Shown here one piece after another: positions 16,490 to 21,338 of a DNA stretch of 64,000 nt. The notes beneath the pieces are model-generated. The model ran no database searches and was not told where the DNA came from. It saw only the letters and a program-made list of their open reading frames with translations. Every line of letters starts with the position of its first letter. Within the stretch, counting starts at the first letter, position 1. Source of the DNA: Candidatus Borrarchaeum weybense. Its GTDB lineage: Archaea; Asgardarchaeota; Sifarchaeia; Borrarchaeales; Borrarchaeaceae. Location: assembly GCA_019057385.1 (NCBI GenBank), contig JAHQJS010000008.1, positions 1 through 64,000 on the forward strand, in the 5' to 3' direction. Position numbers and translations under genes: made by a program.

Positions 16490-17041
16490 TTAATCCTTTT
16501 TGATTTCAACAGCTAAAGCAACATTCCTATCAATTAATGCCTTTGCATTTTCATTTGGCAAAATGCAAATATCTTCTGGCATAAAAGGGCCGTATATCTT
16601 TAAATCTGTACCTACGAAGGAATCTAGTTGTTCTAGTATTCTAACAATCTTTCTTCCTGATTGAATTTCTTCATTTTTTGTTGTCTGATTTTCTTGAAAT
16701 ACTATTCCAAAATAAGTATTTATTGCATCTCCTAGATTTGAATGTAGAATATCTTCAATTCTAGTTAGATTTGTGAAATCTATCTCTACATTATCAACAA
16801 TACTTTTCAGTATCTTTCTCATTCGAAGGGTGATGTAGTCCTTAATTATAAAATCTAATCGTTCATGTTTGGTTTCAAATAAATTCTTTTCCAGCGGTGT
16901 TAATTCGTCGTATTGCTTTTTTACCTTGCTTTTTTTAATATATTCTCCGATTTTTGCACAAAAATCATCAGTCAATGAGAGGATTTTTATTGAGTTCCAT
17001 TCCTTGATCCATTTCCGGTACATTTCTTCATAATTGTACAT
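16490..17041 (-). CDS. GINS subunit (Gins15/51 type)
   Basis: L..DF, LRMRKI helical A-domain, C-terminal FVGTDLKIYGPF..EDI..LP.ENA..L B-domain; next to PCNA. Confidence 0.88.
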   Translation of the reverse strand: MYNYEEMYRKWIKEWNSIKILSLTDDFCAKIGEYIKKSKVKKQYDELTPLEKNLFETKHERLDFIIKDYITLRMRKILKSIVDNVEIDFTNLTRIEDILHSNLGDAINTYFGIVFQENQTTKNEEIQSGRKIVRILEQLDSFVGTDLKIYGPFMPEDICILPNENAKALIDRNVALAVEIKKD

Positions 17042-17258: not shown

Positions 17259-18032
17259 TTATTCACTACCTTCAATTCGGGGGGCTAAAAAGTATTCTAA
17301 CTTTCCTCCTCCGATAGTCTCAAATCCAATTTTTAATGGCATATCACTTGAATATTCAATTTCTAGATTTTCTGCTGCACTAACAGCTTTTGTCATATCA
17401 CTTAGATACTTAAGGGCATAAATTGCTTTTGATTCTTCTCTTACTTCATACTTATAAAGCGTATCTGTTTCCTTATCAATGATTACCTCAACTTCGCCCG
17501 TGTCTCCTTCAGCGGCTACTTTAAGCATATCTGCGGTCGTCTCCAGAAGAATATAATCCCCTACAACTTCCGCGTCTTTAATAGCATCCTTAAAAACGCC
17601 TGCAACTATATTGATAATTGTATTAAATTCAATTTTAGGAATAGGTATTTCCTCTCCACTTGTATCTCCAAGTAAAGAAAGGCTGAAATTACGTGTGACC
17701 TTGTCAGATTTTAACTTCAGTTTTAATTTATTCTTAGTCTCATCCACAGTAAGTTCTAAGGAATCTGATCCTCCTGCTCTTCGCATGATCTGCATCATTT
17801 CAGTAAGGCTAATTCCAAATTTTGTTTCGCCAGTGCATTTGTAATCTTGAAATACGCTGGATGGTACTTGGAGGTCAACCATTGCAATATGTGCTTCGTC
17901 AATCGCGCGTGCATGAAGGCCAGATTCGTCTGCAGAAAAATAAATCTCCTTTACAAGAGCTGATAGCGCTTCTATAATTGTCTTCCATGTGATAGCTTCT
18001 TCAAAAAAGGCTTTTACAACCATTTTCATCAT
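17259..18032 (-). CDS. pcna: Proliferating cell nuclear antigen (sliding clamp)
   Basis: AID.AHIAMVDL, F.DY, Y.LKYL, PLKI, YFLAPRIE. Confidence 0.96.
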   Translation of the reverse strand: MMKMVVKAFFEEAITWKTIIEALSALVKEIYFSADESGLHARAIDEAHIAMVDLQVPSSVFQDYKCTGETKFGISLTEMMQIMRRAGGSDSLELTVDETKNKLKLKLKSDKVTRNFSLSLLGDTSGEEIPIPKIEFNTIINIVAGVFKDAIKDAEVVGDYILLETTADMLKVAAEGDTGEVEVIIDKETDTLYKYEVREESKAIYALKYLSDMTKAVSAAENLEIEYSSDMPLKIGFETIGGGKLEYFLAPRIEGSE

Positions 18033-18139
18033 CTCTGTTAAATTATTTTAAAATCTCATTTAATCTATCATTCAGTTGAACTGTGAGAACAACTCCTTAA
18101 AAGATAAATTATCTTATTACGCGCTCGTTCATAGAAATA

Positions 18140-18518
18140 CCCCAAGGAAATTCCTTCCCTTAAGGGTGGAGAGGAAGTGAGATCGGACTCTGCTTACACC
18201 CCCCCCTTTCTGTGAGGCGCAGGGGATAGTTTACCCAACCTCGCTCGGGTGGTGTTTTAATGACGGGTACTCGCAAGTCCTGTCGCTCCCAACACCAGGG
18301 AGTAAGTCCACTTCGAGATTGTTGTAAAGGCTTTTTACATCAGCAGCATCGTTCCTACCCCTCAGAACTTTTAACCACCGACGACAGACCAGGGGGCTAG
18401 TGGAACACCCCAGGGTGTCGTGGCCTAAACAGCTGCTGCATCTCACTGAGAGATGCCCTCTAATCAACTAAGAGACTTGCATGAACAAGTCCCTACCCTT
18501 TAGGGTGGGGTAGTTGGC
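18140..18518 (-). mobile_element. Non-autonomous IscB/IsrB-type element (both ends kept, nuclease ORF deleted)
   Basis: End hairpins CCCCACCCTAAAGGGTAGGG and CTCCACCCTTAAGGGAAGGAA; residual TTG-start MRVPVI at 18276; residual tail HFLSTLKGRNFLGVFL* in another frame. Confidence 0.82.
18280..18518 (-). ncRNA. HEARO / IscB omegaRNA scaffold
   Basis: GCCAACTACCCC..CTAAAG..ACTTG..CAAG..GTTGATTAG, ACACCCTGGGGTGTTCCACTAGCCCC, TTAAAAGTTCTGAGGGGTAGGAAC, ACAATCTCGAAGTGGA match the HEARO pattern as I recall it. Confidence 0.85.
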
Positions 18519-18635
18519 TTACCTGTTGATCTTTAGTTTTACTTAGACTAATATAAAACATAATAGTTCTTTAAAAAAGTTATTTAGATGTAATAATCTT
18601 GATTAAAAAAGTTCATTTGTAATGGTTGTACAAGT

Positions 18636-19943
18636 ATGAATATTTGTATCGCTACGGATTTATTCCCCCCAGAAGGAGGCGGTAGTGAACTTAGCGCTTA
18701 TTTTTTGGCGAAAGGTCTTGCTAAACGAGGGCATAATCTCTTAGTCGTTATGCCTCATTTTGGTCAAAAAACAGTTTATAAAGAGCACAAATGGTTTAAA
18801 ATCATCCGTTTTCGATATCTTCGTGCGCCAAATGTGGATTTTTTAAGAAATGTTGTACAAAATGAGTTGCTTTATATTTATATGGCCCAGATGCTCAAAA
18901 AGATTGTAAAAACTTACGAAATAGAACTTATTCACGCGCAAAATATGCTTACAGTTCCTCCATCTGTTATTGCTGCTAAAAAAACTAACATTCCCGTAAT
19001 AGCCCATATTCGTGATTATTGGCCTATTTGTTTTAGGAGATCATTCATACGTCCCAATGGCAGCGTTTGCGACAGTTGTAATTCTAAAAATTTGATTAAC
19101 TGCATTCGCCTAGAAGGTCAGTTTTCCTCTTTTTTCATGCCTGCTAGTATTCCATATATTTCCGCAAATATGGGTCTTAAACAATTACTATTGAATCGAG
19201 CAGATCACGTAATTGCAATTAGTGATGCAGTACGTACGATGCTTTTAGCAAGGCGGTCTATAGTTATGAAACATTTCTCGCGTTTGACTCCACAAAAAAT
19301 CTCTGTGGTTCCAAATATAATGCCTATACCTTCAAAGAGACTTACAGAAAGTGAATTACTCGGAATGCGTCGTTATTACAAATTAGATGAAAAAGATATG
19401 CTTGTTTTATACGTAGGTCAATTGACTTATGACAAGGGGGTTCATATACTTATTAAAGCTCTTGAGCTATTATTACTCAAGAATACTTCATTAAAACTCA
19501 TTATCCTGGGAAAGGGTCCATTAGCTAGTCATCTTGAAAAAATTAAAGGTCGTTTTGGCGATCAATTAAGATATTTTGGATTTTTACCATATAACAAAGT
19601 CCTACAATTCTATCAAATGGCTGATATAGTTGTAGTTCCATCAATCTGGCCTGAAGCGCTAGGTCGCGTCAATCTTGAAGCTATGGCACTAAGAAAACCA
19701 GTCATTGCGACAAAAGTAGGTGGTATCCCTGAAATTATTACACACGAAAAAGACGGAATATTAATTGAACCCGGTGATCCTAAAGAGATAGAACATGCGC
19801 TTTACAGACTTATAAACGATCCAGATCTTAGATCACGTATTGGATTGGAAGGAAGAAAAACAGTAGAGAAACGATATAACGAAGGCATTGTTTGTGATCA
19901 GATACTCTCAATATATAAGAAATTAACGCGGTTTCGACAATAA
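18636..19943 (+). CDS. GT4 glycosyltransferase with Cys-cluster insert (copy 1)
   Basis: GGGSE, RDYWPIC..C..C..C, WPEALGRVNLEAM. Confidence 0.92.
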   Translation: MNICIATDLFPPEGGGSELSAYFLAKGLAKRGHNLLVVMPHFGQKTVYKEHKWFKIIRFRYLRAPNVDFLRNVVQNELLYIYMAQMLKKIVKTYEIELIHAQNMLTVPPSVIAAKKTNIPVIAHIRDYWPICFRRSFIRPNGSVCDSCNSKNLINCIRLEGQFSSFFMPASIPYISANMGLKQLLLNRADHVIAISDAVRTMLLARRSIVMKHFSRLTPQKISVVPNIMPIPSKRLTESELLGMRRYYKLDEKDMLVLYVGQLTYDKGVHILIKALELLLLKNTSLKLIILGKGPLASHLEKIKGRFGDQLRYFGFLPYNKVLQFYQMADIVVVPSIWPEALGRVNLEAMALRKPVIATKVGGIPEIITHEKDGILIEPGDPKEIEHALYRLINDPDLRSRIGLEGRKTVEKRYNEGIVCDQILSIYKKLTRFRQ

Positions 19944-20030: not shown

Positions 20031-21338
20031 ATGAATATATGTATAACTACAGATTTATTCCCCCCAGAAGGAGGAGGTAGTGAACGTAGCACTTATTTTT
20101 TGGCGAAAGGCCTTGCAAAACGAGGACATAATATCCTAGTCGTCATGCCTCATTTTGGTCAAAAAACAGTATATGAAGAGCATAAATGGTTCAAAATCAT
20201 CCGTTTTCGATATCTTCGTGCACCAGATGTGCCAGTATTCAGGAATATCGTTAAAAATGAATTATTTTGCCTTTTTATGGCAAAAAAACTTAAGAAAATC
20301 TTAAAAGATTACAGAATTGAGCTTATTCATGCACAAAACATTCTAACGATTCCTCCCTCCGTTATCGCTGGTAGAAATACCAAAATACCAGTTATTGGCA
20401 CTATTCGTGATTATTGGCCAATTTGTTTTAGAAGGTCATTTACAAAACCTAATGGCAATGAATGTGACCAATGCAATTTCAAAAATTTAGTCAATTGTGT
20501 CAGTCTTGAGGGTGTGCTTCCCTCTTTTTCTATGCCAGTAATCCTCCCCTATATTTATGCAAATTTGGCTCTTAAACAATTATTATTAAATAAAGCAGAC
20601 CACGTCATTGCAGTAAGCGAGGCATTGCGTAAATTACTTTTGACAAGACTGCCCTTAAATAAATTGAAGAATTGTATACAATTGCCTTCCCAAAGAATCT
20701 CTGTCGTTCCAAATATAATGCCTTTACCTTCAAAGATCCTTACAAAACCTGAACTGATGTTAATGCGCCGTAACTATAAATTTAATGAAAATACTAAACT
20801 GATTCTTTTTGTAGGTCAACTAACTTATGAGAAGGGCATTCTTGTACTTATCCGTGCAATTAAACAATTATCACAAAAAAATCCTTCTGTAAAGTTTGCA
20901 ATCCTTGGAAAAGGTCCTCTCACGGATTACATAAAGAAAATGCAAGCCAGTATAGGAGATCAATTTCGATATTTTGGATTTTTACCTTATAATGAAGTAC
21001 TAAAATTCTACCAGATGGCAGATATTGTTGTATCTCCCTCAATTTGGCCTGAACCTCTAAGTCGTGTTATTATTGAGGCTATGGCACTAGGAAGACCGGT
21101 TATAGCAACAAATGTAGGTGGTACTCCAGAAATTATTACTCATGAAAAAAATGGCATATTAATTGAACCTGGGAATCCCATAGAGATTGAGAACGCGATT
21201 AATAGATTAATAAACGATTCAGATCTTAGATTTCATATAGGTTTAGAAGGAAAAAAAACAATAGAAAAACATTACAATGAAGCAAGTATTTGTGATAAAA
21301 TACTCTCATTATACCATAGAGTACTTAGTAGTTACTGA
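20031..21338 (+). CDS. GT4 glycosyltransferase with Cys-cluster insert (tandem paralog)
   Basis: Same length (435 aa) and collinear with 18636-19943; WPEPLSRVIIEAM. Confidence 0.92.
   Translation: MNICITTDLFPPEGGGSERSTYFLAKGLAKRGHNILVVMPHFGQKTVYEEHKWFKIIRFRYLRAPDVPVFRNIVKNELFCLFMAKKLKKILKDYRIELIHAQNILTIPPSVIAGRNTKIPVIGTIRDYWPICFRRSFTKPNGNECDQCNFKNLVNCVSLEGVLPSFSMPVILPYIYANLALKQLLLNKADHVIAVSEALRKLLLTRLPLNKLKNCIQLPSQRISVVPNIMPLPSKILTKPELMLMRRNYKFNENTKLILFVGQLTYEKGILVLIRAIKQLSQKNPSVKFAILGKGPLTDYIKKMQASIGDQFRYFGFLPYNEVLKFYQMADIVVSPSIWPEPLSRVIIEAMALGRPVIATNVGGTPEIITHEKNGILIEPGNPIEIENAINRLINDSDLRFHIGLEGKKTIEKHYNEASICDKILSLYHRVLSSY

Follow-up and report, generated by a model that had tools for sequence, protein, structure and literature searches.

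A probable protein-less IscB-type mini transposon with a HEARO scaffold upstream of pcna in an Asgard archaeon

Introduction

OmegaRNA loci with no adjacent iscB or isrB gene, and with the nuclease encoded elsewhere in the genome, were reportedly described by Altae-Tran et al. in 2021 and proposed to act in trans. The ISC transposons, which encode IscB, have a 5′-GTCA terminus, insert between N and ATGA, have termini in common with IS605, and are mobilised in trans by Y1 transposase (Kapitonov, Makarova and Koonin 2016, PMC4810608). Derivatives without protein genes also exist: these PATE-like elements, studied as relatives of ISGst5 and ISGst1 in Geobacillus stearothermophilus, often encode omegaRNAs for use in trans, with the HEARO RNA located at the transposon right end (RE), and the motif of the ISGst5 IscB is 5′-TTCAT-3′ (Meers et al., bioRxiv 10.1101/2023.03.14.532601).

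Here we analyse a 64,000-nt stretch of archaeal DNA (the window), on contig C8 of a 4.18 Mb genome in eight contigs (G000). Its interval 18518-18133, read on the minus strand, is very likely a 386-nt protein-less derivative of an IscB-encoding IS200/IS605 (ISC) transposon, and we are slightly surer still of its identity as a mobile mini element.

Like the PATE-like derivatives, it keeps both ends and has no protein gene, its omegaRNA would need a nuclease encoded elsewhere, and HEARO is at the RE, the guide lying beyond the end of the element; the adjacent motif is that of the ISGst5 IscB, TTCAT (ATGAA on the omegaRNA strand). The host here is an Asgard archaeon whereas theirs is a Firmicute, the window family is known from sequence alone, and the minis here fall into three subfamilies and outnumber the full-length elements (20 vs. 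16). With the ISC transposons it shares subterminal imperfect hairpins, insertion between N and ATGA without duplication, and termini like those of IS605-type elements, but the window copy begins with GCCA rather than GTCA and has lost iscB. In contrast to the stand-alone omegaRNAs of OMEGA systems, this one has mapped ends and empty sites, which demonstrate that it is a mobile unit. It resembles the HEARO family (RF02033; Weinberg et al. 2009) in its full-length, above-cut-off match and its many copies per genome; the local family differs from the Rfam model in two further conserved 3′ hairpins outside it, and downstream elements missing from the model were also noted by Meers et al. for their set (bioRxiv 10.1101/2023.03.14.532601).

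Results

Host and genomic context

The host is an Asgard archaeon of the Borrarchaeum/Sifarchaeum genus, so placed because its PCNA relatives (87-96% identity) include MAGs named Promethearchaeota archaeon, Candidatus Borrarchaeum yapensis, Borrarchaeota archaeon, and Candidatus Sifarchaeum marinoarchaea. The element (Table 1) lies in a 603-nt intergenic region between a divergent glycosyltransferase gene (start 18636, + strand) and the pcna frame (18032, - strand), 101 nt from that frame and 110 nt from the likely pcna ATG.

The glycosyltransferase gene that forms the divergent neighbour is the first of two tandem 435-aa GT4 paralogues (18636-19943 and 20031-21338, + strand), the first 380 nt of which are 81% identical.

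Table 1. Features of the element and its surroundings, in window coordinates.
Feature	Coordinates	Strand	Basis
Whole non-autonomous IscB-type (ISC / IS200-IS605) mini element, 386 nt	18133-18518	-	Empty sites, base by base
OmegaRNA scaffold; RE in IS nomenclature	18302-18518	-	Rfam HEARO RF02033
Two extra 3′ hairpins past the Rfam model	18262-18302	-	Family alignment pairs 231-256 and 258-280
iscB start remnant, TTG-R-V-P-V-I	18259-18276	-	Comparison with intact IscB frames
Subterminal imperfect hairpin and terminus, pcna-proximal; transposon left end (LE) on + strand	18133-18172	-	Aligned with full-length 3′ ends
Target/transposon-adjacent motif ATGAA, host DNA (TTCAT on + strand, immediately 5′ of LE)	18128-18132	-	Present in empty sites
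Host flank, would-be 16-nt guide AAAGATCAACAGGTAA	18519-18534	-	Read directly 5′ of scaffold
TATA-like TTTTATAT, host DNA, candidate promoter element, 32 nt from scaffold	18551-18558	-	Sequence only
Second candidate A/T-rich motif, TTTTTTAAAG	~18576-18585	-	As for the preceding motif
pcna, likely start ATG 18023	17259-18032	-	PCNA_N and PCNA_C domains
gins51, same strand, after pcna	16490-17041	-	Gins51_C domain

Boundaries and insertion site

The boundaries were set from empty sites in the congeneric genomes G002 and G004 and the metagenome contig L079, together with a 386-nt joint (18132 to 18519) in run X4. In G002 and G004 the flanks are contiguous, with …AAAGATC[A/T]ACAGGT[T/A]A joined directly to ATGAACGAGCGCGTAATAAG…; over the two congeners and the metagenome contig, the precise empty site reads AAAGATC[A/T]ACAGGT[A/T]A joined to ATGAACGAGCG. 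The filled site differs from the empty one by a gain of exactly 386 nt with no base duplicated, that is, without target duplication. In the window, the insertion point in the intergenic region of pcna and the glycosyltransferase gene has ...CAACAGGTAA on one side and ATGAACGAG on the other; the element starts with GCCAACTACCCC and finishes with GGGGTATTTCT at 18133, after which the host sequence ATGAAC follows. The element was thus inserted as a unit, and in the lineage of the window genome, as dated by the intact site in its congeners. Run X4, from one sediment metagenome, contains both filled junctions as well as two contigs with a joint omitting exactly 386 nt, at a matching threshold (85%) under which filled and empty forms from one population and from two species look the same.

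TTCAT directly 5′ of the LE on the plus strand matches the canonical IS200/IS605 arrangement, as read from the insertion junction, and ATGA follows all five copies of subfamily A. The distal imperfect hairpin (~18172-18140, - strand; called by program at 18165-18140) begins ~90 nt past the iscB remnant. The sigma-70/terminator scan that made this call is not meant for archaea, and served for hairpin coordinates only. In 11 full-length IscB elements, the ends just beyond the stop codons can be aligned with the pcna-side end of the mini element, and by this alignment the latter also retains approximately the last 7 iscB codons. At the other end, the scaffold-end hairpin has 88% identity over 25 nt with the RE of the genome's only tnpA-tnpB element (…GGGTGGGGTAGTT…). 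Predicted subterminal imperfect hairpins at both ends are therefore common to the window element and its protein-coding, autonomous relatives. The terminus is GTCAAC in the family and GCCAAC in the window copy. Judged by these alignments, the omegaRNA (HEARO) scaffold of the mini element is complete and its two transposon ends are preserved, but iscB codons ~7 to 390 are missing.

Scaffold and RNA structure

In a cmscan search of the 64-kb window against Rfam, the single match above gathering score was HEARO RF02033, at 18518-18302 on the minus strand (104.7 bits vs. a gathering score of 83, E 1.7e-20), covering model positions 1-211 of 211. The scaffold thus belongs to the HEARO family by score, with the full model matched above the cut-off. 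A consensus fold (RNAalifold) of 24 family members from five genomes, mini and full-length, has 59 predicted pairs, of which 15 show changes on both sides (e.g., AU/GC 17:7, GC/AU 12:12, CG/UA 13:11); the sequences in this alignment are related, so the covariation is supportive, and carries no formal statistical test. Such compensatory changes among relatives point to HEARO membership by conserved secondary structure as well.

Past the Rfam model, the first additional predicted hairpin is CTCCC-TGGTGTT-GGGAG (18302-18286, - strand) and the second GACAGG-loop-CCCGTC (18284-18262, - strand), with the iscB TTG start codon in its loop. The second stem is GACGGG…CCCGTC in minis and GATAGG…CCTATC in full-length copies, a difference of two compensatory pairs (double changes of CG to UA and GC to AU in the pairs of the extra hairpins); the window copy has one A.C mismatch in this stem. 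The remnant codons are TTG-CGA-GTA-CCC-GTC-ATT (18276-18259, - strand). Intact IscB genes of this genome begin TTG-RVPIYVLNMRGQPLMP (TTG-RVPIYVLN...), with which the remnant agrees for M-R-V-P before departing; its frame stays open through 38 unrelated codons and does not constitute a gene. The six retained codons probably belong to the guide RNA as the 3′ half of the 18284-18262 hairpin, since they form a hairpin half with compensatory changes between mini and full-length copies; their place in the 3′ structure of the RNA would account for the retention of the first iscB codons in every mini. The sole guide-strand frame of at least 40 aa (18467-18231, 78 aa) lies inside the scaffold, where there are indels among relatives. 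With the iscB frame cut to six matching codons, the window element has no protein-coding capacity.

Much of what the earlier note had read from the letters is borne out by these comparisons: the complete HEARO-like scaffold on the minus strand from 18518, for which it had proposed the covariance-model search, the omegaRNA of HEARO/IscB type without its nuclease gene, the six codons resembling an IscB start (TTG-MRVPVI), which are a true iscB start remnant, the hairpin at the distal end, the position upstream of PCNA, and, in the host DNA 5′ of the scaffold, the minus-strand TTTTATAT and a flank reading ...AAAGATCAACAGGTAA right before the scaffold, where it had expected the guide.

Copies and families in this genome and its relatives

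Genome-wide there are 36 HEARO matches, 28 of which exceed the cut-off, and 16 RRXRR (IscB) frames, mostly of ~401 aa. An IscB frame lies within 500 nt downstream of 16 of the 36 matches, and 20 have none; one of the former 16 is a separate scaffold, 471 nt upstream of an IscB that already has a scaffold of its own next to it. A BLAST search of the genome with the intergenic region found four further loci of the window subfamily (C5:392458, C7:566993, C6:872754, and C4:921769), with 78-90% identity from the first scaffold base to the end, although the C6 locus is partial. The five subfamily copies in the genome have the same internal junction and both ends, in unrelated flanks. The second subfamily has ten copies, with a different and longer scaffold but an identical junction and tail, and the third has five. 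Four congeneric genomes contribute 22 further matches, more than 10 of them with the same internal junction at other loci. The family is thus present in multiple copies with unrelated flanks and without protein-coding capacity. Segmental duplication, considered as a source of the same-junction copies, is excluded by these unrelated flanks.

Given the identical junction in so many copies and the ends shared with full-length elements, the iscB deletion must have arisen in an ancestral element, in one event or a few, the short form spreading afterwards.

Two loci combine mini families or element types. A mini at C6:774769-775190 (+ strand) is chimeric, with a third-subfamily scaffold but a window-type 3′ hairpin and tail, which suggests recombination between mini families. 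A third-subfamily mini scaffold (C4:705743-705994, - strand) adjoins a full-length IscB element (C4:705319-704760), 471 nt upstream of it.

Possible partners in trans

The window element has no iscB in cis, and all 16 RRXRR frames, the kind of gene that the earlier note had suggested looking for, are elsewhere in the genome. The IscB whose own scaffold is closest to that of the window (C3:53837-55039, 400 aa) contains both an RRXRR and an HNH domain, and its matches to solved IscB structures have E values of 1e-38 to 1e-46. A single Y1_Tnp gene (C7:194221-194586, 131 bits) is found in the tnpA-tnpB element with the similar RE hairpin; this end similarity is what links the single tnpA to the mini element, and it may not encode the cognate transposase. 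The genome, with 36 HEARO matches, 16 IscB frames, and a single Y1 transposase gene whose element has a comparable end hairpin, thus contains putative trans partners for the window element.

Guide, target, and candidate promoters

Allowing up to one mismatch, the would-be guide occurs only once in the genome. On contig L079 the empty allele matches all 16 nt and continues with ATGAA (ATGAACGAGCGCG), and the empty sites of G002 and G004 have one guide mismatch each, so that the empty allele, with guide match and motif, would be a natural target. The earlier note had suggested looking for the guide next to a TAM in the genome or in associated viruses. Outside the L079 empty allele, the window genome itself has only a site with 2 mismatches, and a viral contig collection yielded no exact match of guide plus ATGAA, in a search by exact matching that would miss diverged targets. 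The genomic site (C7:898162-898183, + strand), reading AAAGAACAACTGGTAA and then ATGAAC, is the only near-match to the guide with the motif. One of its mismatches is in the motif-proximal half, and it falls at about codons 8-14 of a 511-codon frame. Shuffled guides produce such a 2-mismatch match with motif in 2.6% of trials (p ~0.026), so this one could be a matter of chance. Neither the genome near-match search nor the viral exact search supports trans-action on targets beyond the element's own empty site.

The usual spacing of archaeal promoters is ~23 nt. At this spacing, the TATA-like TTTTATAT would yield a guide of only ~10 nt, while the A/T-rich motif further upstream would yield ~33 nt, which would need trimming. 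The nearer motif is retained in the empty-site genome G004 and contig L079, and is altered in G002, G001, and G003.

Since the nearest upstream gene is divergent, with no co-oriented gene to read through into the scaffold, transcription would have to begin within the 118-nt flank. Across the genome, 27 copies have a long frame no more than 400 nt upstream, and 19 of them point the same way as that frame, by a crude long-ORF test; the same bias has been reported by Meers et al. (bioRxiv 10.1101/2023.03.14.532601). The window copy also has four private substitutions (18517, 18432, 18389, and 18349) at positions invariant in 23 relatives, that at 18432 disrupting a predicted pair of the family consensus fold, and another of the four placing a C opposite an A in the first stem of the Rfam model. 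Its score of 104.7 bits is 22-25 bits lower than those of three of its four sisters (126-130). In three pairs of orthologous orphan scaffolds, identity in the scaffold vs. the upstream flank is 95.4 vs. 72%, 93.5 vs. 91%, and 87.5 vs. 96%; scaffold conservation is not consistently above that of the flanks in these pairs, and gives no consistent signal of selection. The divergent neighbour, the private substitutions, the lower score, and the inconsistent scaffold conservation all count against a guide RNA from this copy that still works, and we put the chance of one at somewhat less than even.

The pcna neighbourhood

A well conserved block containing the TATA-like sequence GCGCGTAATAAGATAATTTATCTTTTAAGGAG lies downstream of the insertion point (~18124-18093) in all filled and empty genomes, and could, by its sequence and position, be the real pcna promoter, undisturbed by the insertion. 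If the pcna promoter lies upstream instead, the element is part of the pcna leader. No strong T-run terminator was found between the element and pcna, either by reading of the sequence or with the non-archaeal terminator scan, so that read-through from the element into pcna seems possible.

In two other genomes, G001 (contig L043, ~1979-2440) and G003 (contig L046, ~1044-1500), a sister mini occupies a second N/ATGA site, ~60 nt nearer pcna, reading GTTCAA, element, ATGAATAAG; the window's site is intact in both. This sister element is an independent insertion upstream of pcna.

The ribosome-binding site region of pcna (18024-18040, - strand) also varies among the genomes. It reads AGAGATGATGAAA-ATG in the window and GGGAGGATGAAA-ATG in G002 and G004, with GGAAGG at the same position in G001 and AGAGGA in G003; the filled-site genome has the weaker GGAGG match before the likely pcna start.

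Discussion

By the mechanism established for this family, a Y1 TnpA acting in trans would have moved the mini element by single-strand "peel and paste" to its place beside TTCAT. Minus-strand transcription from the host flank would then give an RNA consisting of the 5′ guide AAAGATCAACAGGTAA and the scaffold, to be loaded into an IscB encoded elsewhere, perhaps that of the closest scaffold partner at C3:53837-55039. The complex would cut the empty site, recognised by its guide match and ATGAA, whether that site was left by excision or lies on a sister chromosome without the element, and recombination would then copy the element back into it (restorative homing).

Whether this particular copy still takes part in such a cycle is another matter, and we give an even chance to its being inert at the pcna locus: a decaying mini transposon, neither mobile there nor transcribed to a usable guide RNA. 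Decay is what the private substitutions at invariant scaffold positions would suggest, one of them pair-breaking and another within the first Rfam stem, as would the score below those of three sisters and the divergent upstream gene; likewise, G001 and G003 differ more in the sister insertion at the second pcna site than in its flanks (87.5% vs. 96.3%). Nevertheless, the match spans the full model and scores well over the family cut-off, the two ends are intact, as is the flanking ATGAA, there are TATA-like motifs within the 118-nt flank, and filled and empty forms occur together in one natural sample. Loss of the nuclease gene in situ from a full-length IscB element, as the earlier note had supposed, is a different proposition. 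The first codons of iscB and, by alignment, approximately the last 7 are indeed retained here, but an identical junction (…TTG[A/C]GAGTACCCGTCATTAAAACACC…) is found in four other subfamily copies and ten of the second subfamily, as well as in many congener copies, all with different flanks. The deletion therefore predates the insertion, and in situ loss is rejected, with hardly any probability left to it: with the same junction in at least 5 copies in the genome and in congeners, and with empty sites, the element arrived at this locus already short.

Two further readings would give the element a use beyond its own maintenance. It might have been exapted into pcna control, as a structured 5′ leader or a promoter-modifying insert; it shares a strand with pcna, the frame is 101 nt away, and the interval contains no strong T-run terminator; in G001 and G003, an independent sister element has entered the region at another ATGA site. 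Against this, pcna is intact in G002, G004, and L079 without any element, the conserved TATA-like block downstream of the insertion (…GCGCGTAATAAGATAATTTATCTTTTAAGGAG) could be the true pcna promoter, and with ~19,000 ATGAA sites a double insertion at some locus would be expected about 1 time in 10 by chance (a rough estimate). We consider exaptation quite improbable. Less probable again, to about the same slight degree as in situ loss, is a guide acting in trans elsewhere, on a host gene or on a virus, for defence or regulation. The site at C7:898162 has the appeal of a perfect motif with only 2 mismatches, at the start of its 511-codon frame, but one mismatch is motif-proximal, shuffled guides do as well in 2.6% of trials, the viral contig collection has no exact guide-plus-motif match, and, as the biology of the family predicts, the guide is no more than the flank of the insertion.

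A more specific link to pcna, improbable as well but a little less so than exaptation, is that the TATA-like motifs at 18558-18551 and ~18585-18576 are the native pcna promoter, which would make the guide RNA the 5′ part of a pcna-gins51 transcript. If so, guide production, and hence homing, would be tied to replication-gene expression, when sister chromosomes serve as repair templates, and the independent sister insertion in G001 and G003 would reflect selection for the pcna context rather than chance.

Read as a mobile mini element, the window copy cleanly exemplifies a kind of element described before, and reveals no new mechanism. It does provide a natural IscB element reduced to its guide RNA, in an Asgard archaeon, for which the filled and empty sites, the guide, and the adjacent motif are all mapped to the base, and the TTCAT/ATGAA rule of the bacterial family holds in this archaeal lineage too. 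In practical terms, the guide and its natural target are a ready test pair for the 400-aa archaeal IscB, and the element is a strain-level polymorphism marker beside an essential replication gene.

Additional observations

ARAGORN finds only 17 tRNAs genome-wide, a set too small for deriving a TATA consensus from the upstream regions, with 11 of them on contig C1, which has 39% GC, tight tRNA clusters, and a run of N; this contig may be a contaminant, given the 7% estimated contamination of the assembly. Pyl machinery is found in a single Asgard family, according to a preprint. In the present genome, ARAGORN calls a tRNA-Pyl at C7:143743 (- strand).
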